Below are positions 42,711 through 56,150 of a DNA stretch of 64,000 nt, in pieces. The notes under the pieces were generated by a model. It did not search any database. It had not been told where the DNA came from and saw nothing but the letters and a program-made list of their open reading frames with translations. This stretch comes from an uncultured cyanobacterium (GTDB taxonomy: Bacteria > Cyanobacteriota > Cyanobacteriia > Cyanobacteriales > Nostocaceae), in contig OY970166.1 in assembly GCA_963706595.1 (NCBI GenBank), positions 1,056,001 to 1,120,000 on the forward strand, written 5' to 3'. The position numbers and the translations under genes were made by a program. The first letter of the stretch is position 1, and each line of letters starts with the position of its first letter.

Positions 42711-43718
42711 GTGAAAGCAGTTTTAATGACAGCAGCTGGTAGTCCTGAAGTTCTGCAATTACAGGATGTGCCAAAACCTACTTTACCTTTAGGAAATAGT
42801 GAGCTTTTAGTCCGTTTAGTAGCGGCTGGTGTTAACCCCATTGATATAAAACTCCGTCAGCGAGGCACTTTTTATCCTGAGCAAATGCCGGCGATTTTAG
42901 GCTGTGATGGTGCTGGAATTGTTGAGGCTGTGGGTGTTGGTGTTGAAAGATTTCGCGTAGGTGATGAGGTGTTTTTTTGCTATGGTGGCTTGGGCGCACA
43001 TCAGGGTAATTACGCTGAATATACTGTAGTTGATGAAAGGTTTGTGGCACGTAAACCGGCTTCAGTCTCTTTTGCAGAAGCCGCCGCAGCGCCTCTGGTA
43101 TTAATTACTGCGTGGGAAGCTTTGTATGAACGGGGGAGGTTAGCACCTGGAGAACGGGTGTTAATTCATGCGGGTGCTGGTGGTGTTGGTCATGTAGCGA
43201 TACAATTAGCAAAACTGAAGGGTGCTTCTGTCTGCACTACTGTGAGTTCTCAGGAAAAGGCTAATTTTGTGAAAGCACTCGGTGCTGATGAGGTAATTTT
43301 TTACAAAGAAACAGATTTTGTCAATGCGGTGTTAAGTTGGACTGGTGGTGAAGGTGTAGATTTAGCTTTTGATACTGTGGGCGGTGAAACTTTTCACAAA
43401 ACTTTTCCGGCTGTGCGGGTATATGGGGATATTGTGACGATTCTGGAACCAAAGGCTGATACTGTTTGGAAGGCTGCTAGATTACGTAATCTCCGCGTTG
43501 GGTTGGAATTAATGCTGACTCCGATGTTGGAAGGTTTGGAGGAGTGTCTGAAGCATCATGGGGAAATTTTGGCGCAGTGTGCTACTTGGATGGATGAAGG
43601 GAAGTTGAAAGTTGAGGTGAGTCATCGCTTTCCTTTGGCGGAAGCGGCTCAGGCTCATCAAGTTCTTGAGTCTGGTGCGATGATTGGTAAGGTTGTTCTG
43701 TTAATGAGTGATGAGTGA
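42711..43718 (+). CDS. MDR-family (zinc-binding dehydrogenase / quinone oxidoreductase) protein
   Basis: AAGVNPID, ILGCDGAG, VLIHAGAGGVGHVAIQLAK, GKVVL. Confidence 0.92.
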   Translation: MKAVLMTAAGSPEVLQLQDVPKPTLPLGNSELLVRLVAAGVNPIDIKLRQRGTFYPEQMPAILGCDGAGIVEAVGVGVERFRVGDEVFFCYGGLGAHQGNYAEYTVVDERFVARKPASVSFAEAAAAPLVLITAWEALYERGRLAPGERVLIHAGAGGVGHVAIQLAKLKGASVCTTVSSQEKANFVKALGADEVIFYKETDFVNAVLSWTGGEGVDLAFDTVGGETFHKTFPAVRVYGDIVTILEPKADTVWKAARLRNLRVGLELMLTPMLEGLEECLKHHGEILAQCATWMDEGKLKVEVSHRFPLAEAAQAHQVLESGAMIGKVVLLMSDE

Positions 43719-43774
43719 TTGAATTTTTTTTTAAACGCAAAGGGGCGCGGAGGGAACCGCAAAGGGGCGCAGAG

Positions 43775-45952
43775 ATGAAATTATATTTATCTCTGCGTTG
43801 GGTTTGTATGTATGTCTGCGTTATATTAGTTCTACTTTTCTTTTCTTTACCTGCTGGGGCGATCGCAAGTCAACCAGAACGCACTTCTTTAAGTCTGGAG
43901 TTGTTGCAGGAACGATTGCAAGCTCCGGTAATTCGTGAGGGTAATTTGACTGTGGATTTACGGGATATGGTGATTGATTTGCGACCAGAAAATAGGGAAT
44001 TTCGGGATGAGTTTTACCAGTTGCTACGAAAGGAGTTACAAAAGTCGGGGACGAAACCTTTGGGTTTAGACTTGAGTAATTCTCTGATTCAGGGGAATTT
44101 TGTGGGTAGCGATTTGGGTTTGAGAACTCCTCTCTATGCTCCTATTTTGACGAGTGGTGAACAAGCCCAATTGTCACGTTTGCGTTTTGTTTGTTTGCAG
44201 TCTTTAGGAATCGCTTTACCTAATTCTAAGGACTGTCGCGCCCTTTTGGGAAGTCAGCCGACAGCATCTAGTGAAATCAACATCTTTCGTGGTTCTTTAA
44301 TTCTAGTAAAAACTCGCTTTAATGGGGAAGTACAGTTTCCTAATACTTTCTTTTTTCAGCCTGTGAATGCCAAAAATGCTATTTTTTTACAAGCTACTAA
44401 CTGGGCTGAAACTAGGTTTAGCCGTTCGGTACGTTTCACTGGGGCTAATTTTCGGCAATTAAGTAATTTTCAAACGAGTGTTTTTTTTGAGAAGGTTAAT
44501 TTTGAGCAGGTGCAATTTCAGGAAAGGGCTGATTTCCAAGATAGCACTTTTGAAGAGTCTACTAAATTTAATGAGGCTAGTTTTCAGCAATCAGCTAAAT
44601 TTAATCGGGCGCAATGGCGAGGGAATATTGATTTTTCTGGTGTGCAATTTGCTGATACTGCACAGTTTACTCAGGCGAATTTTTATCAGGATGTTTCGCT
44701 CACGGAAGCTATTTTTGAGCAAGCTGTAATTTTTCAAGAAGCTATTTTTAAGCAAGCTGTAAATTTACGTGGGGCTAGTATTTTTAACCAAGCCGATTTT
44801 AGCGATGCGCGGTTTGCTAAAGAGGCTTTTTTAAATGTCCCTGGTTTAACTTTTAATTCTAACCAAGGCAAGATTTTAGGAAATCCCGGCGAAATTGGCA
44901 AGATGTTTCGTGTTCCGACTTCCCAAGGGAATCAAAGTATTTTGCGGAATTTGGGGCAGAATTTCCGTCAGCAGCAGCAAATAGCGGATGCTAATCAGTT
45001 GGAGTATACAAAACAAAAACTGCAATTGCGGGAGTTAAGCCATCGTTTGGTGGATTGGAATATTAATAATGTTACGCAAAAAAGTTTGATTAATTTGGGT
45101 TTTAGTGTGGCTCAGGCGGATGCGATCGCACATCGTCGGATGATTGAACCATTTCGCAATAGCAGCGACTTATTAAGTTTACCAGATATCGATTTAGAAA
45201 CATACAATCAATTGAGCGATCGCCTCGTAATTGCTGAACCTCTTTCCCCTGGTAGTTGGTTCTTACAAGCTGCAAGATGGTTGGCTTTGAGTGTACTATT
45301 GTTGCTTAGTGGCTATGGTACCAGCTTTTGGTTAGTCTTTGGCGTGGGCGGAGTCGCGATCGCTTACTTCGGCGGTTTATTTTGGCTTGTTGATCGCTAT
45401 CGCCGTTTACATCCAGTAGCAATTATTCCTACATACCATGAAACTATGTGGATGTTCACTGGTTTCAGTATTTTAACCCTCTTGAGTTTATTAGCTATCT
45501 TTCGTAATGCTGAACAACCTTGGCTGACTCTCGCTTGTCTTTTAATAATTATTGTCCCCTTACCGATAACTTTATTAATCCGACTTTACCAACAAGGCCG
45601 CTATCACGATTTAATGGATATTTCTTATTTCACAGAAGACGGTACTTTCCGGCAATTACGCTTATTAATTGGACGATTACCAGTCATCCCAAGATATCAA
45701 ATGTTTCGGGAACGATATATGCATTTGTTATGGAATCGCCGTTGGAACTGGCTGAATTATTACGATTTTAGTTTGAACAATTTAGTCAGGCTAGGATTTA
45801 ACGATATTCGCCTGCGAGATGAACATTTACCGGGTATCATCGCCACACTTGCTTGGTATCAGTGGAGTTTGGGTATACTTTACATTACCCTAGTCTTGTG
45901 GACTCTTTCTCGCACTATTCCCGGATTAAATTTACTAATTTATCTCAAGTAA
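43775..45952 (+). CDS. Pentapeptide-repeat membrane protein with HhH-like insert and channel-like C-terminus
   Basis: Long F-x4 repeats (VRFTGANFRQLSNFQ...), ComEA-like segment, several TM helices. The upstream TTG/GTG extension from 43715 runs through a repeat. Confidence 0.85.
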   Translation: MKLYLSLRWVCMYVCVILVLLFFSLPAGAIASQPERTSLSLELLQERLQAPVIREGNLTVDLRDMVIDLRPENREFRDEFYQLLRKELQKSGTKPLGLDLSNSLIQGNFVGSDLGLRTPLYAPILTSGEQAQLSRLRFVCLQSLGIALPNSKDCRALLGSQPTASSEINIFRGSLILVKTRFNGEVQFPNTFFFQPVNAKNAIFLQATNWAETRFSRSVRFTGANFRQLSNFQTSVFFEKVNFEQVQFQERADFQDSTFEESTKFNEASFQQSAKFNRAQWRGNIDFSGVQFADTAQFTQANFYQDVSLTEAIFEQAVIFQEAIFKQAVNLRGASIFNQADFSDARFAKEAFLNVPGLTFNSNQGKILGNPGEIGKMFRVPTSQGNQSILRNLGQNFRQQQQIADANQLEYTKQKLQLRELSHRLVDWNINNVTQKSLINLGFSVAQADAIAHRRMIEPFRNSSDLLSLPDIDLETYNQLSDRLVIAEPLSPGSWFLQAARWLALSVLLLLSGYGTSFWLVFGVGGVAIAYFGGLFWLVDRYRRLHPVAIIPTYHETMWMFTGFSILTLLSLLAIFRNAEQPWLTLACLLIIIVPLPITLLIRLYQQGRYHDLMDISYFTEDGTFRQLRLLIGRLPVIPRYQMFRERYMHLLWNRRWNWLNYYDFSLNNLVRLGFNDIRLRDEHLPGIIATLAWYQWSLGILYITLVLWTLSRTIPGLNLLIYLK

Positions 45953-46090
45953 TGTGCAACATCAAACTAAGATAAATTACTTCATGCAGAGACATAAGAT
46001 AAATCCCATACTAGGGGTAGTGTTACGCAATCTGCGATAGATGCAAACTTAATAGTATAGTTTAGCTGTGTTCTACTCCAGAAGACATTT

Positions 46091-46480
46091 ATGATTGACC
46101 ATATTGGGATTAACGTTAGTGACTTTGAGCATAGCAAGAATTTTTATGCCGTTGCCTTAGCTCCATTGGGATATGAGTTAGTCAAAGAGTACGATCATAC
46201 CGCAACTGGGATTAAATATGCAGCTGGTTTTGGCAGAGATGGAAAAGCTGACTTTTGGATTGTTGATGGGGAAGTCAACATTCCACAAATTCATGTAGCT
46301 TTCACAGTTGAATCCTGCGAGAAGGTTAACGCTTTTTACACAAATGCGATCAATGAGGGTGGTAGAGATAATGGCGCACCAAGTTGGCGATCGCATTATT
46401 ACCATTCCCAATACTATGGAGCGTTGGTTTTAGATCCAGATGGTCACAACATTGAAGCAGTATGTTATGCACTGTCATAA
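46091..46480 (+). CDS. VOC / glyoxalase family protein
   Basis: MIDHIGINVSD..SKNFY..ALAPLG, HVAF, GGRDNGAP, LDPDGHNIEAV. Confidence 0.92.
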   Translation: MIDHIGINVSDFEHSKNFYAVALAPLGYELVKEYDHTATGIKYAAGFGRDGKADFWIVDGEVNIPQIHVAFTVESCEKVNAFYTNAINEGGRDNGAPSWRSHYYHSQYYGALVLDPDGHNIEAVCYALS

Positions 46481-46532
46481 TCAGTAATGTAAAGGTAGCA
46501 CTCAAACGGAAGCGATCGCCTCGTAATTGCTG

Positions 46533-46623
46533 ATTATATAAGGTACTCTTAGCCCCCTCATCGCTTGCGGGGAGGGGGTTGGGGGTGGGGTTCTTGTACC
46601 TCATAACACCGGGAAGTGCTGTA
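46533..46623. mobile_element. Truncated MITE with REP-like hairpin (left end lost)
   Basis: Essentially identical to 23671-23761 but lacking the left TIR. Confidence 0.75.
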
Positions 46624-46698
46624 TTGTCTGGTTTTAGCTTTTTAACACTCTTTAGCTTATTAGCCATCTTCCGTAATGCTGAACAACCTTGGCGGACA

Positions 46699-46823
46699 CT
46701 AGTACAAGTCGGCGTAAATAAACACACCATTCAAAATCCATGAAAAGCCCATTTTATAAGCTTTTTGACTTTTGACTTTTGACTTTTGACTTTTGACTTT
46801 TGACTTCCGCCTTGCGGTACTAG
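46699..46823. mobile_element. MITE bounded by CTAGTAC...GTACTAG with an internal TTTTGAC array
   Basis: Interrupts the pseudogene; CTAG present on both sides; homology to the intact gene resumes immediately after. Confidence 0.8.
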
Positions 46824-47294
46824 GGTGTCTTTTAATAATTATTGTTCCCTTACCTGTAATTTTATTAATGCGACTTTATCAACAAGGCCGCTATCACAAT
46901 TTAATTGATGTTTCTTATTTCACAGAAGATGGTACTTTTCGACAATTAAGATGATTAATTGGGCGATTACCAGTCATACCTAGAAATCAGACATTCCGCG
47001 AACGATATATGCCTCTTTGATGGAATAGTCGTTGGAATTGGTTAAATTACTACGACTTTAGCCTGAACAACTTAGTCAAATTAGGATTTAATGATATTTG
47101 CCTGCGAGATGAACACTTATCCGGTATCATCTCCACACTTGCGTGGTATCAGTGGAGTTTGGGAGTAATTTAGATCACCCTAGTCTTGTGGACTCTTTCT
47201 CGCACTATACCCGGATTGAATTTACTGATGTATCTCAAGTAATATCTGCGCTATTCTTGCCTATAGATCCAAATTTATTGTGCCATCACAGTAT

Positions 47295-47621
47295 TCAGTT
47301 ACTAGTGTAATTAGTCACAATAATTGCAGTATAAGTATTAAAACTAAAGGAGCGAGATGTTTCGTTATCAGTTCTGGCGAAGGATTTAGCTCGTGCAGAT
47401 GCTACGCCAATAGTCAGGTTTGGGAAATCTCTCACCGTTGATCGAGTGTAAGTATCAGTAGCAGTCTGACGACCTCTAGCAGATGCTATAGCAGTATAGC
47501 CCAAAGATTCAGGCTCTCTGGAGATAGAGGTTTCAGCATAGGTATTACCACCTTTTACAGTATTAGTCTCAGCAACTAGCTGTATATAACTTAAGTCTGC
47601 AATGATTAGTCGCTTTTTCAC
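47295..47621 (-). CDS. Small secreted protein with double-glycine leader (Thr/Ser/Ala-rich core)
   Basis: GTG start with AAGGA RBS; leader IIADLSYIQLVAETNTVKGG. Confidence 0.8.
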   Translation of the reverse strand: MKKRLIIADLSYIQLVAETNTVKGGNTYAETSISREPESLGYTAIASARGRQTATDTYTRSTVRDFPNLTIGVASARAKSFARTDNETSRSFSFNTYTAIIVTNYTSN

Positions 47622-47732
47622 AACTTCCTTAATTTAGTAAATTGGGGTCATTTTTTCCAACTGGATCGGCGATTTTCTGCCCACTAATGATTTGTGAATA
47701 TGGGTAAATTCTCGCCGCCAACCAGTTGCTGT

Positions 47733-47804
47733 GTTGAATGCTTCGTAGTTGTTAGCCTAACTATGAATTACAACTTAATTAGATAGACTACGAAGCAAAT
47801 CAAC
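47733..47804 (-). terminator. Long stem-loop directly 3' of the 113-aa precursor gene
   Basis: gttgaatgcttcgtagt ... actacgaagcaaatcaac inverted arms. Confidence 0.55.
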
Positions 47805-47814
47805 AAGTTGTTAT

Positions 47815-48156
47815 TTATAAGCTAATCAAAGCAGCAGAACTACTAGATGAGAAGGAATTACCGTAGTAATCTGTAACAGCCAATGTGTCTGCCTTAGTGT
47901 AGCTATAAGCATGATATTCACCAACATCTGCTACACCTTTAGCACCAGCAGAAGCACTGATGTTATGAACATCTTCAGGTGCTTTGATGATTGTTGTAAA
48001 TTTATTTGTGGTATCGAATGTAGTTTCTACTTTGTCATTTTGATAGTAGGATAAATTCCGATTGCCCCTATCTCTTTTCCCTTTTTTCTCACCACCACCT
48101 TGAATTTTAGATGCTTCTTGAATATTTTCTAAAATGCTTAAATCAGAAATGTTCAT
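47815..48156 (-). CDS. Small secreted protein with double-glycine leader
   Basis: Leader MNISDLSILENIQEASKIQGG; core ends ...SASAGAKGVAD...YSYTKADTLAVT...SFSSSSSAALISL. Confidence 0.85.
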   Translation of the reverse strand: MNISDLSILENIQEASKIQGGGEKKGKRDRGNRNLSYYQNDKVETTFDTTNKFTTIIKAPEDVHNISASAGAKGVADVGEYHAYSYTKADTLAVTDYYGNSFSSSSSAALISL

Positions 48157-48217
48157 GATTTATTCTTAGTAATTTTCTAGTTGGTTTAGGGATTTTATTA
48201 TAACCAATTCGCTTTGA

Positions 48218-48260
48218 TTGGCTATGTTTATATAATAGCTAATTACCTCAAGAAAGTAAC
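48218..48260 (-). promoter_or_regulatory. Putative promoter of the 113-aa precursor
   Basis: GTTACT-N17-TATTAT-ATAAACATAGCCAA; the AAACATAGCCAA block is shared with 48904-48945. Confidence 0.55.
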
Positions 48261-48605
48261 TGATTTATTTTTTGTTTTTACCGAAAAATAATTCAAATAA
48301 TTATTTTTATATACTCAATTTATAGGCAAATCTTTGCAGTTTAGTTTAGTAAGTTTCGATATTTTGAATGAAAATAAAAAAATATTGCTGGAACGCTTTT
48401 TAGCTATTCCAACAATATTTGTACTGCCTGATTACAATATGAAATTGACGGGCTTAATCTCAATCATAGGAGAACTACAAGCAAAGATTAAGTTAAAAAT
48501 CCAGACAAAACCCAACCAAAAATGGTTTTATTTATTCTGAGAATCGGGATCAATTTCAAATTGCTGACAGTTTTTTTTGCCAATTGTACTATTTCTTGCA
48601 GTCCA

Positions 48606-48857
48606 TTAAGAGATACTAATCTTTGGCACTACTGTAACTTTAACCTCAGTTTCTTGTGTGATTTTGAAGGTATCATTATCATTTGTGTTGCTAGTATATT
48701 TCTTACTTTCATCATTATCTTTAGTGTATTTTCTGTCGCCATTATTCTTCTTAGTGTATTTTTCTTCTTCCTGACGTTTATTATTTTTCCAACCACAACC
48801 ACCAATAACATTTGCTGCTGTAACGGTTTCTAAGATGTTTAAATCAGAAATGAACAT
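48606..48857 (-). CDS. Small secreted protein with double-glycine leader and 10-aa KYT repeats
   Basis: AGGAG RBS; leader MFISDLNILETVTAANVIGG. Confidence 0.82.
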   Translation of the reverse strand: MFISDLNILETVTAANVIGGCGWKNNKRQEEEKYTKKNNGDRKYTKDNDESKKYTSNTNDNDTFKITQETEVKVTVVPKISIS

Positions 48858-48903
48858 TGAGTTTCTCCTGGGTTATTTACTGTTTTCTAGCCGTCTTTTG
48901 TGT

Positions 48904-48945
48904 TTGGCTATGTTTTTAATATATCCGATTATTCAACTAAGTCAA
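48904..48945 (-). promoter_or_regulatory. Putative promoter of the 83-aa precursor
   Basis: TTGACT-N16-TATATT-AAAAACATAGCCAA. Confidence 0.55.
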
Positions 48946-49205
48946 TATCTCATGCAACATCTTTTTTTTGAAAAATAATATTAATAGATGGTGCAATTTA
49001 ATATATTTCTAATAACCTATTCACGCCAAATTTAGGCAATATAATATATTGCCTAAAAACAGGAGTTTTTAAATAAATTAATTTTTATCCGGGATTAAAC
49101 AGTGTACAAGCACTATTTATTAGCCATCAGCCAATACACTTTGGTTAAGGCTAACTTTTTTTAAGCGAACCTCAGAGCCGAGAGGCCACAGAGTGTTACA
49201 TACTT

Positions 49206-49328
49206 ATACCAATTCTGTATGAAGATGCGCTGAATTATATGAGTAACGTTAGCGTAGCCTGCGCGTAGCGCATACCGCAAAGGATACAAAGAAAGAAATT
49301 CAGCGCAGCTTTACATAGAAAGGGTATT
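49206..49328. mobile_element. Probable MITE
   Basis: ataccaattctgtatgaagatgcgctgaatt ... aattcagcgcagctttacatagaaagggtat long imperfect inverted ends. Confidence 0.65.
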
Positions 49329-49361
49329 AGGTTTATTTGTGCCTACTTACTTAACTATAAA

Positions 49362-50141
49362 TTAGGTCTGCGTCAGCAATTCTTTCGGTGACTGTATCGT
49401 ATCTGCATCTAGCTGAGTAATTATTTCTATAGCATCAATTTGTTGCTTTAACCAACCAGTAAATAATTCTGTAATGATTTTTTCGCGTAAGGATTCATCT
49501 AATTGGGGTTGACTAATTTCTTCTACCCAAATTAAGTACACTTCTTTTGTAGTCGCAATTGGCTTGAGAATCTGCGGTGGAGTTGCAGCAAATACAGCAG
49601 CAGCAATTTCTGGGCGAAAATCTTTACGGTGTCGCCGTCCCTGATATCCATAAGTACCCCGATGTTCTGATTCGGGGATATATAGACGAGCAATTTCTGG
49701 AAAACTAATTTCTCCTTCTTCCACCGCATAAAACATTTCTAAAGCCAAGTCTTGATCATCAAAAATCACTTGATATGTTATGGCGGTGATATAATCTAGT
49801 TGATGTTCATAAAAGAATCGTTCCACTTGGGAATTAAATAGAAAATTTGCTAACTTTTTGGCAAGAATTTGGTTGTGGACTAATTCTTCAAACTCATTCA
49901 CAGAAAGATAGTTTTTCTCTAGCCATGTTAATGTATCTTGGGCTTTTACAAGCTTCTTAGCTAAACGTAATTTATCTCCTTCTTCCTGTATTTCTTCTGG
50001 TGTGACTGTAATTCCTGAGCGCTGGGCTACTTCTGCAATAATCTTTTGTGATGCGATCGCCTCTAAAAGAACAGGAACCTGCGATGATAGTTTCAGGCTG
50101 TGAATGATGTCTGAACTAGAAATAGACAAAATTTGAGTCAT
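49362..50141 (-). CDS. Parvulin/SurA-like peptidyl-prolyl isomerase (foldase) of peptide-export clusters
   Basis: Helical chaperone N-domain; LALEMFYAVEEGEISFPEIARLY, FRPEIAAAVFAA, LKPI rotamase-like motifs; directly after HlyD. Confidence 0.85.
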   Translation of the reverse strand: MTQILSISSSDIIHSLKLSSQVPVLLEAIASQKIIAEVAQRSGITVTPEEIQEEGDKLRLAKKLVKAQDTLTWLEKNYLSVNEFEELVHNQILAKKLANFLFNSQVERFFYEHQLDYITAITYQVIFDDQDLALEMFYAVEEGEISFPEIARLYIPESEHRGTYGYQGRRHRKDFRPEIAAAVFAATPPQILKPIATTKEVYLIWVEEISQPQLDESLREKIITELFTGWLKQQIDAIEIITQLDADTIQSPKELLTQT

Positions 50142-50194
50142 GATTCAATCCTTGTAGTAATTTTGCTATTTTTTGATGGCTCTACAAGCAATGA

Positions 50195-51748
50195 CTAAAG
50201 CTCTAAACCGTTTTTGTGCAATTTCTTAAACGGATCTAAAACAAAATCAATCACGCGTCGCTGACGCAAAATCACTTCAGCATTTGCTGTTTGTCCTGGG
50301 TTTAATGGAATACGTTTTGCACCACTTTGGACATAGTTCTGTTCTAAAACGATTTCTAACTCATAGGTTTCTATATTTCCTTGGGGTGTTTGATTAATTT
50401 TAGAGTCAGGAGAAATCCAAGCCACTTTACCTTCCACAATGCCATATTCCTGGAAAGGAAAGGCATCAAACTTGACTTTCACCGACATTCCCACATTTAA
50501 GAAGCCGCTATCCTGGATTGGTATATTCGCTTTGAGTACGATGGGACTATTTTGAGGTGCAATGTGAGCAATCCTTTGACCGACTTGTACCACCTCTCCC
50601 GGCTTCGTGACTGGTAACTCAAAAATTGTGCCATCAATAGGCGATCGCACCACACGTTGCTGCATTTGTAGATTTAAGGATGTAATTTTGCTCTGAGTTT
50701 GAGCAATTTCAGATTGTAAATTAGTAACCTGCGTCTCTAAACTTTTAAGTTGTTCTTGATATTTAAGCACAGCCAATTTACCAGATTTTAGTAAACTTTG
50801 ATGACTGTTTTTCTCGGCTTGAAGTTGATATTTTGCTTGTTCAATATCAGATTCCAACTGATTCATTGTCACCTGATAGCGGCTCGTTTCTTCAGCCAAG
50901 CGTAATTGTGCTTGTTTGACATCAGATTGCGCTCTGGAGTAAAGTCTTTTACTTTCTTGTTCTTCTTTTTTGAGTTGGTCAACTTGATTCGCCGAAACCG
51001 CACCATTGTTCACAAGTTGCTGAAAACGTTGGACTTGCCGGGAATCTATACTCAAACGACCTTGAGCCGACTGCTGGTCATTTTTAGCCGTTTGAATCTG
51101 CTGCTGTACCTGATTAACTAATGCTTGTATTTCTAACTTTTGCAGGTTATAAGTACTTTGTTTTAACCCTAGGTTTTGCTCTGCCTGGTTCACTTGAGAC
51201 ATTTTTTCTAAAGCTTGAAATTGGTTTTGTTGTTTCTGAATACTTAGTGTCAACTGAAGTTGGTTTTTTAGCACATCAAACTGCGCTTCTTGATTTAGCA
51301 GTGCGGAAAGTTTAGCTTCGGCTTGCTGAAGTTCCGTTTGCAAAATCTCAGTATCAAGTTCCATCAACACCTGTCCCATGGTTACAGTGTCGCCTGCTGT
51401 CACCTTCACAGCTTTGACACTTCCTCCGGCTTGTGAGTCCAATTTTTGTGTTGCACCTTGAGGTTCTATGCGTCCTCTGGCGCTACCAGTTTCATCTACT
51501 TTTGAGAAAGTTGCCCAAGGTAAAGCTAGAGATGCAAAGCCTACCAGCACATAAAACACACCACGAGTCCAGACTTTTGGTAAAGCATCTAGCAGTTCTT
51601 CAGTACCGTAATATAAATCTTCGGTATTACCTTCTGGAATGGTCTTGTTAAATTTAGTAGTTTCTTCGCTGGGTTGAATATAAACTTTATAGTCTTCTTG
51701 CTCTTTTTTGAGAAGTAGAGATGAGGCATTAGGAAAGGTATTAGGCAT
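50195..51748 (-). CDS. HlyD family type I secretion adaptor
   Basis: TM, VDETGSARGRIEP, long coiled coil, VRSPIDGTI, VKVKFDAFPFQEYG, LNPGQTANAEV. Confidence 0.95.
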   Translation of the reverse strand: MPNTFPNASSLLLKKEQEDYKVYIQPSEETTKFNKTIPEGNTEDLYYGTEELLDALPKVWTRGVFYVLVGFASLALPWATFSKVDETGSARGRIEPQGATQKLDSQAGGSVKAVKVTAGDTVTMGQVLMELDTEILQTELQQAEAKLSALLNQEAQFDVLKNQLQLTLSIQKQQNQFQALEKMSQVNQAEQNLGLKQSTYNLQKLEIQALVNQVQQQIQTAKNDQQSAQGRLSIDSRQVQRFQQLVNNGAVSANQVDQLKKEEQESKRLYSRAQSDVKQAQLRLAEETSRYQVTMNQLESDIEQAKYQLQAEKNSHQSLLKSGKLAVLKYQEQLKSLETQVTNLQSEIAQTQSKITSLNLQMQQRVVRSPIDGTIFELPVTKPGEVVQVGQRIAHIAPQNSPIVLKANIPIQDSGFLNVGMSVKVKFDAFPFQEYGIVEGKVAWISPDSKINQTPQGNIETYELEIVLEQNYVQSGAKRIPLNPGQTANAEVILRQRRVIDFVLDPFKKLHKNGLEL

Positions 51749-51844
51749 GATTTTATGGGGAGTGGGGAGTGGGGGGAAGAGGCAGGGGTGCAGGGTGCAG
51801 GGTGCAGGGGGGAAAGAGGCAGAGATGCAATTGTCTGAGTGAAA

Positions 51845-54800
51845 TTAAACTACTTGAGCTAATTGTTGTTGATTGAGATAGTAGTAATGTCCTTGTTTAG
51901 CAATTAGTTCTTCGTGAGTACCGCTTTCTACTAATACGCCTCGATCTAAAACTAAAATTAGATCGGCATTACGGACTGTGGAAAGGCGATGGGCAATAAT
52001 GACGCTGGTACGCCCTTGAAGAATTGTTTTGAGGTTGTTCTGAATAATTCTTTCTGATTCTGAGTCTAGGTGACTGGTGGCTTCATCAAAGAGTAATAGC
52101 CGGGGGTTGCCGAGTAAGGCTCTAGCAATGGCGAGGCGTTGGCGTTGTCCACCAGAAAGCATTCCGCCACTTTCGCCAATTTGGGATTCATAACCCATTG
52201 GCATTTGCTGAATAAATTCATCTGCACCAGCCCATCGTGCGGCTTGTGCAATTTCTTCTAAGGTGGCTTCTGGGTGGGCGATGCCAATGTTTTCTCGAAC
52301 TGTGCCACCAAATAGAAAGGTATCTTGATCAACTACACCTATTTGACATCGCAGCGATCGCAAGGCAATATTATTCACATCAAAGCCATCAATTAAAACT
52401 TTGCCATCTGTTGGTGGGTATAAACCTAAAATCAATTTGCTCAAGGTGGTTTTTCCCGAACCACTCCGCCCCACCACCGCTACCATTTGCTCTGGCTGGA
52501 TTTCAAAGTTGATATTTTCCAGCACGTTAGTCTCACTTTCAGCATGATAACGAAATGTGACATTTTTAAAGCAAATCCGGCCATTTAGTCTCTCTAGAGG
52601 CTTGCGGGGTTTCTTCTGCAAGTCTTCTTCTGGTTCGGCTTCTAAAACATCATTAATCCGTTCTGTAGAAATAATAATTTCCTGTAATCCATTCCACAGC
52701 ATCGATAACCTTTGAAAAGGACTCAAGACGTTACCCACCAACATATTGAAAGCTACTAACTGCCCCATTGTCAGTTCCCCTTGAATGACTTGCCATGCGC
52801 CAAACCACATTAAGGAAGCATTGACAAATGTTTGAATAACGCCACTAAGGATTTGTAGGCGATTACCTATCACTTGGGCATGAAAGCCTTTTTTTACCAA
52901 ATCATTCAGCAACTCTTCCCAATGCCAGCGTACCGTCTGTTCAATGGCTAATGAACGCACTGTGCGAATGCCTGACAGAGATTCAATCAGATAACTGTTT
53001 TCTTTGGCTCCAGCATTAAAAATCTCTCTGGAAATGCGACGCAAAATATTTGTGCTAGCCAGTGCGAGAATAAAAAATGGCGGCACTGTTAATAGTACGA
53101 ATAAGGTCATGCGCCAGCTATACCAAAACATCATGCTCAGATAAATCACTAATGTCAGCAGATCCAGGATGATTGATAAAGTCTCGCCGGTCAGGAAGCG
53201 CTGAATTTTTTGATTTTCTTGAATGCGAGAAACAATATCACCCACATAACGCGACTCGAAATAAGCCAGGGGTAAGCGGAAGGTATGTTTAATAAAACCC
53301 ACAAGTAGGGAGATGCTGACGCGATTGGCTGTGTGATCTAGCAGATATTGCCGCACGGCGTTCATGGCGATCCCAAATAAACCAAAAACGATCATCCCTA
53401 TACCTACGGCGTTTAAAGTAGGAATGCTGCCTTGCACCAGGACTCGATCTAGTAATAGTTGGGTGAAGACTGGCGTTACTAGTCCGAATATTTGCATCAG
53501 CACACTGGCGATGAAGACTTCTATCAGGACTGCATAGTGAGGTTTAATTAACTCAAAGAATTTCCAAAAGTTGGCTTTCTCGTTCTTAGTTTGTTTGAGT
53601 AACTCTGTCGGTTGCAGTAATAAGGCATAACCAGTCCAACCTGCATTAAATTGGCTTCTGGTAAGGCTAACTTGACCGATAGCGGGGTCTCCGACGATTA
53701 CACGCTTTTTGGTGATTTGATAAACGACAATGAAGTGGTTGCCTTCCCAGTGTGCGATCGCAGGTAAAGCTTGTTCGGCAAACTTATCGAAGGTAGCTTT
53801 CACAGGACGGGTGGCAAAACCGAGGTTTTCTCCCACTGTGGCTAAGGCACGTAGAGATGCACCACTGCGGCTAACGTTGGTCATATCCCGCAAGCGATTC
53901 ACACTAAACTGCTTACCCCAATATTTACCAATCATCACTAAGCAAGCAGAGCCACAATCTGCGGCACTTTGTTGAGCATAAAAGGGATAGCGTTTGCTCA
54001 GGCGTTTCCACCAATGCCCCATTTGCACTTTCGGGCTGGGAAAGTAAGGAAGTGGTTTATTTTGCTGTTCTTGTGATTTTGCTTCTCGTTGGGGAAAGGG
54101 GATAACTTTGGCTATGGGGTATGGGCTTGGTTTTTTGGATGGGGAAGAGTCCTTTCTATGGGTCTGATTTCCAGTCTCCGAAGTCGGGTATTGTCTAGAC
54201 TCAGGGACAAATGCCGCTAAGGCTGGGCAGTGTTCCAGTACATTTTGCCAGTTGGAATCTTTGAGAATGTAAGCAATTGTCGGTTGTATGGCCTGCCAAT
54301 GACCCTGTTTTGGTTCCGCAGAGATTTGGGCTGGTGTCAGGGATTTACCCTCAGAATGCAGTAGTTGACCTTTGTACAACAACCATAATTGGGAATCGGG
54401 GAATTGTGTATTTACAGAGCCAATTTCTAGTTGGTGTCGCTCAAACAGGGATAAAGCCTTGAGCATGGAATGAAATTGACTGGGATGTGCAGGAAATTGT
54501 GAGTTTTGGCGACATGAAAGCAGTAAATCCCATATTTCTGCACGAGAGAACAAGCGATCGCGAATTTGAGGATATTTGTCCATCAATCCTTGCAATACCT
54601 CTTGTCTGAGATACCCAAGTTCTAAATTTGTCGAGGCTCTGGCGGTGTAATCACTAAAGTTTGACTCTGGGAACAAAGTCATTTCACCAAATGAAGACCA
54701 TGCTGATAAAGTCGTGATTAAATCATCAGAACTATCTGATAATCTGACTTTACCGGCAAGAATGACATAAATACCAGCCTTCATTTCTGCGGATTGCCAG

Positions 54801-54934
54801 AACTGCTTTGTTACTGGTGGCTCCACAAGTTCCATAGATGCCAAACAGTTTTGCAGTTCTTGTTTTAAAAGCGTCTCTCCCAAAACGTAAGTTAGTTTTT
54901 CACCTAGATGTTGCGGGGAAAATACCGTTGTCAT
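51845..54934 (-). CDS. Peptidase-containing ABC transporter (cNMP-binding-like + C39 peptidase + ABC membrane + ATPase)
   Basis: GIYVILAGKVRL/SFGEMTLF cNMP-like domain; QQSAADCG (Cys), GNHFIV (His), VGDP (Asp); GRSGSGKTT, LSGGQRQR, DEATSHLD. Confidence 0.96.
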   Translation of the reverse strand: MTTVFSPQHLGEKLTYVLGETLLKQELQNCLASMELVEPPVTKQFWQSAEMKAGIYVILAGKVRLSDSSDDLITTLSAWSSFGEMTLFPESNFSDYTARASTNLELGYLRQEVLQGLMDKYPQIRDRLFSRAEIWDLLLSCRQNSQFPAHPSQFHSMLKALSLFERHQLEIGSVNTQFPDSQLWLLYKGQLLHSEGKSLTPAQISAEPKQGHWQAIQPTIAYILKDSNWQNVLEHCPALAAFVPESRQYPTSETGNQTHRKDSSPSKKPSPYPIAKVIPFPQREAKSQEQQNKPLPYFPSPKVQMGHWWKRLSKRYPFYAQQSAADCGSACLVMIGKYWGKQFSVNRLRDMTNVSRSGASLRALATVGENLGFATRPVKATFDKFAEQALPAIAHWEGNHFIVVYQITKKRVIVGDPAIGQVSLTRSQFNAGWTGYALLLQPTELLKQTKNEKANFWKFFELIKPHYAVLIEVFIASVLMQIFGLVTPVFTQLLLDRVLVQGSIPTLNAVGIGMIVFGLFGIAMNAVRQYLLDHTANRVSISLLVGFIKHTFRLPLAYFESRYVGDIVSRIQENQKIQRFLTGETLSIILDLLTLVIYLSMMFWYSWRMTLFVLLTVPPFFILALASTNILRRISREIFNAGAKENSYLIESLSGIRTVRSLAIEQTVRWHWEELLNDLVKKGFHAQVIGNRLQILSGVIQTFVNASLMWFGAWQVIQGELTMGQLVAFNMLVGNVLSPFQRLSMLWNGLQEIIISTERINDVLEAEPEEDLQKKPRKPLERLNGRICFKNVTFRYHAESETNVLENINFEIQPEQMVAVVGRSGSGKTTLSKLILGLYPPTDGKVLIDGFDVNNIALRSLRCQIGVVDQDTFLFGGTVRENIGIAHPEATLEEIAQAARWAGADEFIQQMPMGYESQIGESGGMLSGGQRQRLAIARALLGNPRLLLFDEATSHLDSESERIIQNNLKTILQGRTSVIIAHRLSTVRNADLILVLDRGVLVESGTHEELIAKQGHYYYLNQQQLAQVV

Positions 54935-55367
54935 AACCTAACCTCCAAAACAGAATTAGTTACTGGTCTACATCAGACTGAATAACTAATCAAAACTGGG
55001 TGAATGGCAAAAACCTGATTGCGGCTAAAATTTGTGTGTAAATCACAACTATTGAGTTATTCTGATTGATCCTGATCATCTCAACTATTGTCCATTCCGG
55101 GATTTCGCAATCACAAACATCCTCAATTTCCTTATGGGATGGGTGTTATATCGTGTTCGGGGAAAGACTTATCATTAAGGCCGCAGGGGTGCAGGGTGCA
55201 GGGAGCAGGGGGAAAGAGGATTTTACGTTTTTTGCACAGAGGTGGGAATTAGAACTAATTAGGCGAACATGATATTACTACCCGTCCCATTTTTCAGGTT
55301 GGCAAGATGCTCAACGCCACCAAATGGACAATTTATTTGTGAAAAATCCCTAATTCAACAACGATGT

Positions 55368-55493
55368 TAAGTAAGTGGATAAAAATAAATCAAACTTTGT
55401 TACGAAGGATTTAATCCGGACAATATTAGAAATAACTGTTAAAGCACCCATGACCAGCGATTAGTAAATTTAAGGTTTGTTTTCACCTACTTA
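55368..55493. mobile_element. Probable MITE with TAAGTA(G/A)GTG ends
   Basis: taagtaagtggataaaa ... ttttcacctactta. Confidence 0.5.
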
Positions 55494-55972
55494 GTTAGTT
55501 GATCAAATGAGTATCTCGTCGTTGTATCAGCCTAAAAATTAGATTTCAGTAATTGTAAATTGGATGCTTTTTGCAACCCATAATTGCTAGTAATATTGTC
55601 CTCGACTATCAATTGTTTAACAGGTTTTTAGTCTTTGTGTCATGCCACACTGGCACAACTTTGGTGAATCACCATATTTTTCTTTTTATATAAAATATTT
55701 ATATCTGTTATAGTCTATTTAGAAAAATTTTTATTCAAAATGTTAATAAATCAATTGAAAAAACGTAGAAATATGAATTGAGGGCTACCGTGTACACACA
55801 AGTCGGGAAATATTACCTGCACTCATTTTCTTTTGCTAGGGTGCGTTATGGACTTTAGTCCTAACGCACCGAAAATCTGGGACTTTCAACCCAATTTTTC
55901 GGTAATATTTTTACTTGAAGTGTCGCCGTGGTAGTTGAAGAGAAAAATTCTGAAAACCCTGCCTCAAAATAA

Positions 55973-56150
55973 GCAGGGGAGCAGGGAGCAGGGGGGAGTT
56001 AAGAGGCAGGGGAGCGGGGAGCGGGGAGCAAGGGGGAGTAATAAATTACTTTAAACTTCCGGTTACTTAACAACCATTCCTCTTCTCCCCTGCCCCCTGC
56101 ACCCTGCCCCCGTTCCCCCTGAACCCTGCACCCTTCCCCTCTGCCTCTTC
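55973..56150. repeat. GC-rich composite repeat (inverted relative to the cobD insert)
   Basis: gcagggga array, ttactttaaacttccggttacttaacaaccattcctcttctcccc, cccctgc array. Confidence 0.88.

Follow-up and report, generated by a model that had tools for sequence, protein, structure and literature searches.

Peptidase-containing ATP-binding cassette (ABC) transporters (PCATs) cleave their substrates after a double glycine (GG) during export. What such a transporter carries out of the cell is the question raised by a six-gene locus of an uncultured cyanobacterium of the Nostocaceae (assembly GCA_963706595.1, contig OY970166.1). The locus spans positions 47295..54934 of the window, that is the whole 64,000-nucleotide stretch that was analyzed, in a genome of 5.57 Mb and 94% completeness. 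A preliminary description of the window had placed six open reading frames (ORFs) here, and we found all of them at those positions on the minus strand. Judging from their sequences, the three small proteins of the locus, here called cargo A, B and C, are somewhat more probably than otherwise cleaved at the GG, secreted and assembled into an extracellular β-sheet fibre, sheath or matrix. The newness lies in the cargo families, which are unnamed; the transporter trio and the leader motif are already known. The cargo genes, their leaders and the basis of each assignment are as follows.

48606..48857, minus strand: cargo A, 83 aa (orthologs in the same slot of related loci)
48798..48857, minus strand: leader of cargo A (sequence)
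47815..48156, minus strand: cargo B, 113 aa, subfamily B1 (profile, tree, 465 family representatives)
48094..48156, minus strand: leader of cargo B (sequence)
47295..47621, minus strand: cargo C, 108 aa, GTG start (hidden Markov model (HMM) of relatives, alignment)
47547..47621, minus strand: leader of cargo C (sequence)

The common leader consensus proposed in the preliminary description fits all three small ORFs. When written as a regular expression, it matches three of the 86,150 six-frame segments of the genome, and these are exactly cargo A, B and C. Cargo A has a 20-aa leader and a low-complexity core rich in Lys, Asp, Tyr and Asn that starts with a Cys and closes with a Val/Ile-rich tail. 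In cargo B, a 21-aa leader with a predicted cut after IQGG precedes the β-strand core of an unnamed family. Cargo C carries a 25-aa leader and a core rich in Thr, Ala and Ser, in which A-x-A-x-G and T-x-T-x-T patterns occur; cargo C scores 41.4 bits on an HMM of eight relatives built without it, and a Shine-Dalgarno-like AAGGA lies upstream of its gene. Neither Pfam nor NCBIfam offers a credible family for any of the three, in line with the earlier view that the substrates are uncharacterised. YhcN, a candidate for cargo A (20.6 of 99.75 bits in NCBIfam), was rejected as compositional. No tandem repeat was called within the three genes, and Ser and Thr make up 19-31% of the cores. Uncorrected pN/pS (nonsynonymous over synonymous differences per site) is below 1 in all six pairs of a small gene of the window and a homolog (0.37-0.88) and reaches 0.29-0.57 among close orthologs of cargo C and of B2, the other subfamily of cargo B; the value for the foldase of the locus is 0.25.

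The dedicated export route that had been claimed is supported by linkage. In an even sample of the phylum, 34 of 301 genomes, this one included, have a match to the cargo B family, a count that is a floor because the first-pass search was loose. In 29 of the other 33 genomes, the best family match lies within 10 kb of a C39 peptidase domain, where 0.55 would be expected, and 27 of these 29 domains sit in frames of at least 1000 aa. Kin genomes are not independent in these counts; linkage holds in 24 of 28 genomes once the five whose loci seeded the profile are removed. Among 33 cyanobacterial loci found by cargo motifs, often with incomplete flanks, 27 have a C39 match. The family is also found in non-heterocystous genera.

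The cores of the cargo B family carry the structural argument. A search with a 32-sequence profile returned 465 representatives (50% identity) at E ≤0.001 and 157 at 1e-10. For the core statistics, we analyzed 143 of the best 150 members, leaving out one false positive, three forms with a Sec-like signal, one mis-parsed, one partial and one unparsed sequence. Leaders end in GG in 127 of the 143, in GA in 10 and in GS in 6; the cores have a median length of 79 aa, and Cys occurs in 11 of them. In a profile of 120 B2 cores, about 30 residues that alternate between hydrophobic and charged are followed by G-N and then by three strands, one face of which is almost wholly Ala, Ser, Thr and Gly (small residues make up 77-100% at even positions 38-48, 73-97% at odd positions 51-61 and 87-99% at even positions 66-74). 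The face opposite mixes charged and hydrophobic residues. A low-confidence AlphaFold2 (AF2) model of cargo B places three strands of 12 residues each at 66-77, 84-95 and 101-112. Genes of the family often stand in tandem duplicates.

Sequence comparisons yielded no name for these proteins. Pfam named none of 147 family members credibly (one stray TraH_2 match, E 5.5e-4), and the profiles of cargo B and C found no sequence match in the Protein Data Bank (PDB) at E up to 10. In the Atlas, unnamed cyanobacterial clusters appear at 0.90-0.92 and CTB at 0.85, and a wide fold search with the model of pLDDT (predicted local distance difference test) ~53 gave a best Z of 5.4, which we treat as a common arrangement. 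Plasmid searches with one B1 and one B2 protein found nothing. P0138, a protein of 2006 aa with Thr-rich repeats, was rejected as a family member, being a false positive. In the open-access literature, which was the scope of our search (subscription papers lay outside it), no paper on the cargo family or its Fap-like counterpart was found.

Next to the cargo genes lie the three genes of the export machinery.

49362..50141, minus strand: SurA/parvulin-like foldase, 259 aa (Rotamase_2, SurA_N_3 and TIGR04500, all below cut-off)
50195..51748, minus strand: HlyD-family periplasmic adaptor, 517 aa (TIGR01843)
51845..54934, minus strand: long-type peptidase-containing ABC transporter, 1029 aa, with cNMP-like domain, C39 domain, transmembrane domain and nucleotide-binding domain (Pfam and residues)

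The transporter matches cNMP_binding (51-121, 33.6 bits), Peptidase_C39 (316-443, 135.3 bits), ABC_membrane and ABC_tran. Its C39 residues Cys327, His400 and Asp416 are present, as the preliminary description had it, and so are Walker A, LSGGQ and Walker B motifs. The HlyD assignment is equally sound (229 bits on TIGR01843, cut-off 208.65). The label PPIase-like is fair for the foldase, with matches that stay below cut-off for Rotamase_2 (26.6 bits, cut-off 27), TIGR04500 (63, cut-off 180), Rotamase and SurA_N_3 (17.6 bits). By hydropathy, the foldase lacks a strongly hydrophobic N-terminus and is therefore probably cytoplasmic; all 61 genomes searched contain a homolog. In total, the present genome has five C39 loci, including one whose transporter is a paralog of 65% identity, and TolC-type (OEP) genes elsewhere. 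A promoter and terminator scan stayed at chance level (24 vs 22.1 and 4 vs 8.7).

These parts suggest a possible sequence of events. In the cytoplasm, the foldase would keep the aggregation-prone precursors in solution, the C39 domain would cut off the leader, and a TolC-type channel encoded elsewhere would finish the export. Loss of the leader might then free the core for polymerisation. In cargo B, the large hydrophobic face of the ~30-residue N-terminal strand could pack onto the Ala/Ser/Thr/Gly three-strand face of neighboring subunits, and such packing would build a double-layer antiparallel sheet. Cargo B would be the main subunit, cargo C a related minor subunit and cargo A a charged surface or accessory component.

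A homolog in Nitrococcus points to a possible second export route. In six family homologs, the N-terminus is hydrophobic and Sec-like, and a short propeptide with a GG-like site at its end comes next; the Sec-like signals were assigned from hydropathy and sequence, with hydropathy computed for the Nitrococcus protein. A core HMM built from cyanobacteria only gives the Nitrococcus mobilis core 98 bits, and the B2 HMM gives another Sec form, P0160, 97 bits; in neither case did any of 100 shuffles score as high. Downstream of the Nitrococcus homolog lie three more ORFs with a signal and a propeptide, an ATP-grasp gene, a stand-alone C39 peptidase whose best NCBIfam matches are FilB and FapD, and a Phenol_MetA_deg/FapF-like barrel whose best match is FapF. 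HMMs of two further cargo types from cyanobacteria give one of the extra ORFs 17.0 and 14.3 bits, values that none of 100 shuffles reached. Neither the Nitrococcus locus, L056, nor L057 shows a PCAT, HlyD or foldase match; L057 is 81% identical and not independent. Together with the strand patterning, this Fap/Fil-like context supports the earlier preference for a structural role over a classic bacteriocin.

The Sec forms do not group together. In an unrooted tree built from 53 of the 151 cores over 88 columns, with long branches, five of the Sec forms fall with B1 and P0160 falls with B2, split across a 100/99 branch, and a single Sec-form clade, a group named beforehand, is rejected by the approximately unbiased test (p-AU 0.0012). 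A wider and distinctly more tentative proposal is that the family may be a new kind of subunit of extracellular fibres, tubes or sheaths whose assembly starts once a C39 peptidase has cut a GG propeptide, exported through a PCAT in cyanobacteria and through Sec and a FapD/FapF-like machine in Nitrococcus and others, with at least two switches of route. In the class of Nitrococcus, Sec forms are rare (2 of 400 genomes, Nitrococcus itself and one match limited to the N-terminus). As a lead only, P0160 finds unnamed Pseudomonadota clusters of 70-461 members at 0.88-0.90 in the Atlas; a 1.6-kb metagenome contig matching P0160 was set aside for its out-of-frame leader region.

Several other features of these loci can be recorded here. 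Precursors ending in TTxALGEEGG accompany ATP-grasp genes at L056 11744-13150, L075 3945-4891 and L085 11767-12078, and they carry a Sec-like signal in Nitrococcus and a GG leader in cyanobacteria. This module, which we take to be graspetide-like, may have made the same route switch, since its precursors stand behind both kinds of signal. At L093 541-2562, in the class of Nitrococcus, three small signal-plus-propeptide ORFs with different short cores precede a stand-alone C39-like gene. A weak PEP-CTERM gene lies just upstream of the Nitrococcus cargo, and the adjoining region (L056 1300-8425) holds genes that by inspection resemble a contractile injection system (sheath, tube, spike, baseplate).

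The preliminary description had called the three cores unrelated. This stands for the 83-aa core, which has no match among the other cargo types; the cores of the 113- and 108-aa proteins each belong to a recurring family and share, weakly, an alternation of small residues. On an HMM of B2 cores only, the cargo B core scores 15.1 bits and the cargo C core 12.1 bits, each above all 100 shuffles. In profile-profile comparison, B2 against C beats 40 of 40 column shuffles at 12.6% probability, and the score of B1 against C is reached by 2 of 40. Because shuffling destroys periodicity, these results indicate a shared pattern and do not prove ancestry.

A number of observations weigh against a secreted β-sheet assembly. 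The link between the B and C cores is weak (hhalign probabilities ≤13%), the cargo B core scores 2.3 bits on the C-type HMM, a value that 22 of 100 shuffles reach, and no strand pattern suits cargo A. The AF2 models of the monomers are poor (pLDDT 52.7 and 54.8, predicted template modelling score 0.28-0.29), the model from the deeper alignment shows two of the three strands, and Foldseek found no PDB match at E ≤0.001 with a query model of pLDDT ~53. On the genomic side, the family match lies away from any C39 domain in 4 of 33 genomes (G236, G091, G226 and G204, the last at a contig edge), the four other C39 loci of this genome could export the cargo, and ATP-grasp or radical-SAM genes occur in 14 of 53 related cyanobacterial loci. 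The Nitrococcus proteins score far below the family cut-offs (FapD 88.4/330, FilB 101.1/475, FapF 33.6/700 bits), and the ATP-grasp gene and TTxALGEE precursor at that locus imply that the machine is not for fibres alone. An apparent exchange of cargo among close relatives, described below, also fits conflict systems.

That exchange (B2 in four of five same-genus loci, B1 here) is one reason to ask whether the cargo might be antibacterial proteins that carry no modification, such as oligomeric β-barrel pore formers of a microcin- or class II bacteriocin-like kind. Export of GG-leader precursors by a PCAT is the classical route for bacteriocins (Wang 2011, PMC3140520), and the top rows of the structural search are gasdermin pore hairpins, with Z of 5.4 and 5.2. 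A Z of about 5 is, however, less than the best values of 7-8 typical of models without a clear match. The cores contain no hydrophobic 19-residue segment (maximum Kyte-Doolittle 0.27-1.12), and on the side away from the small residues, charged positions are interspersed with hydrophobic ones. Purifying selection acts on close orthologs (the pN/pS of 0.29-0.57 given above), and, as had been described, no immunity-like gene is evident among ORFs of at least 50 aa in 46000-56000, so that we consider an antibacterial role unlikely. The cargo might instead be precursors of peptides made by ribosomes and modified after translation (RiPPs), or glycoproteins, whose enzymes (ATP-grasp, radical SAM, kinase, glycosyltransferase) are encoded elsewhere. 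The 14 of 53 loci just mentioned have MvdC/D-type or nif11-class radical-SAM genes, and by regular expression a TTxALGEE-type precursor is seen in only 4 of the 10 ATP-grasp loci. Moreover, the cargo A core starts with Cys and some orthologs have CC or CCC, the Ser and Thr content is that noted above, and the paralogous locus carries M16, APH-kinase and HopA1-family genes. The claim that the cargo are unmodified holds at this locus, though not necessarily at all related ones. In this genome, MvdC/D gave no match, radical SAM gave two weak partial matches, and YcaO was negative (0/1, with a control positive in 5/14); no tailoring gene, such as LanM, YcaO or a graspetide-type maturase, is evident among the same ORFs of 46000-56000, 39 of the 53 loci have no such genes in the flanks covered, and a conserved strand periodicity is atypical of short modified cores. 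We regard modified precursors as rather improbable; O-glycosylation, for its part, is compatible with a fibre.

The leader motif also occurs inside HetP proteins, and HetP-like genes are present in 16 of the 55 loci L036-L090. A cNMP-like domain, needed by HetC (PMC10986499), is present in the window transporter, and the cargo could be exported developmental or cell-cell signals akin to a HetC/HetP module. Against this quite improbable reading, the motif-bearing HetP of the genome adjoins a different C39 transporter, the family extends to non-heterocystous genera and Nitrococcus, and an 80-residue strand-patterned core in tandem copies would be a costly signal. It is very improbable, finally, that the small ORFs are decaying, unexpressed or exported by another route with the trio working for different cargo, RTX proteins for instance. 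One cargo C comparison gives a pN/pS as high as 0.88, and RTX genes lie beside 21 of 55 related loci and elsewhere in this genome; the cargo frames and leaders are intact nonetheless, as are the catalytic residues of the protease, and linkage is tight across the phylum sample.

Upon comparison with related genomes, the layout of the cargo slots recurs. Regions around the best foldase match were taken from 20 of 60 related genomes, and 18 of the 20 contain leader-bearing ORFs of recurring types A (charged, low complexity), B, C and others. The second slot holds B2 in four of five same-genus loci (of 10 such genomes) and B1 in this genome, which indicates that cargo is exchanged within a fixed site. 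A close named relative of the window B1 protein is found in Thermocoleostomius (61%). In the same-genus loci L036-L039 the C-type gene lies downstream of B2 on the opposite strand; the GTG-start C gene of this genome is co-oriented, like the C genes of other genera. Across L036-L090, a PEP-CTERM homolog of one family occurs in 22 of 55 loci and RTX-repeat genes in 21, a context that we count in favor of an extracellular assembly.

The export trio is of a known type, as had been recognized, and the leader motif attached to it is likewise already in print: Wang 2011 (PMC3140520) describes clusters in which HlyD and SurA accompany a long-type C39 transporter, and gives the motif as KIXDLXYLEX10GG. 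The window has the same trio as groups I and II of that paper, with an N-terminal cNMP/CAP_ED domain and an adjacent HlyD; the adjacent rotamase-domain SurA is counted as present on matches below cut-off. No M16 or other group II accessory gene lies at the window locus, and its gene content is therefore that of group I. The printed motif fits the window leaders with a spacer of 7-8 residues and substitutions. It was drawn from the C-terminal part of HetP (Fig. S1), and PMC4558948 repeats it for HetP, whereas the window leaders are N-terminal and stand before β-patterned cores. Table S3 of Wang 2011 includes unclassified precursors of 100-106 aa, perhaps family members, whose sequences are not given there.

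The likeness of the HetP motif to the cargo leaders suggests that HetP could be a substrate or binder of a C39 domain. The HetP domain model NF037966 has no match in the three cargo ORFs, and the HetP of this genome scores 117.5 bits. It lies at L096 (G000 C1 3244770-3249507), where a long-type C39 transporter is followed by HetP with KIxDLxYLE...GG near its C-terminus, probably hetC-hetP. The window transporter was rejected as HetC, since HetP adjoins this other C39 transporter. The locus of the 65%-identical paralog, L094 (G000 C1 3292066-3312482), fits group II and carries other cargo. Its trio is accompanied by M16 peptidases and by APH-type kinase, HopA1-family, UbiA and HAD genes, with about ten convergent GG-leader genes, mostly near-identical copies of 78-89 aa without a family match, and a helix-turn-helix-like ORF upstream.

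In Synechococcus elongatus, the small GG-leader EbfG proteins are exported via the C39 ABC transporter PteB and have a matrix role (PMC4997328), and EbfG1-3 form amyloid (10.1101/2022.07.13.498973). The window resembles this system in pairing small GG-leader proteins with a C39 ABC transporter and differs from it in leader and core. The preliminary description's comparison with EbfG holds to that extent; the cargo are not of EbfG/CTB type, with none of the three window ORFs matching NF038167, as two of the four GG proteins tested at another locus of the genome do. That locus, L095 (G000 C1 1906416-1914441), has a short-type C39 transporter, HlyD and an array of GG proteins, two of the four tested being of the CTB family; one GG protein has a Gly/Trp/Pro repeat core.

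Secretion of the Pseudomonas Fap amyloid requires FapD, a periplasmic C39 protein whose target is unclear according to PMC5557850, and Fil is a putative pilus system in its NCBIfam description. The Nitrococcus homolog resembles these systems in arrangement, with its Sec-like signal, GG-like propeptide, stand-alone C39 and nearby barrel gene, at matches below the FapD, FilB and FapF cut-offs. The window differs: its C39 domain is fused to an ABC transporter and thus belongs to a type I route, and by inspection its cores have no Asn/Gln-rich FapC repeat of the kind described in PMC5557850. The CT pilus (MrpC), an extracellular cyanobacterial filament built as a double-layer antiparallel β tube (PMC12397347), is an architectural analogue only for the proposed cargo B fibre; homology of CT pilin to the cargo is not supported by the PDB sequence search described above.

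Genome miners count clusters of this type as bacteriocin pathways, and function has been demonstrated for few, EbfG among them. Should a common class of cargo prove structural, part of what is catalogued as cyanobacterial 'bacteriocin' systems would be matrix or appendage biogenesis, with a bearing on mats, soil crusts and aggregates. A second export route, if real, would tie the secretion of Fap/Fil fibres to exporters of the bacteriocin type and hint at the targets of FapD-like peptidases: the Sec-signal forms are candidate substrates of periplasmic FapD/FilB-type C39 peptidases, whose target PMC5557850 leaves unclear. The family also offers a concrete target for cryo-electron microscopy of native filaments.

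The region beside cargo C is marked by a partial duplication. Within 46091-47250 of the window, a glyoxalase/VOC gene (46091-46480) is followed by a stretch that repeats, in broken form, the 3' end of the pentapeptide-repeat gene 43715-45952. This second copy is 86% identical over 417 and 73 nt and contains a run of 7-mer repeats. At L041, a similar VOC gene lies between fragments.

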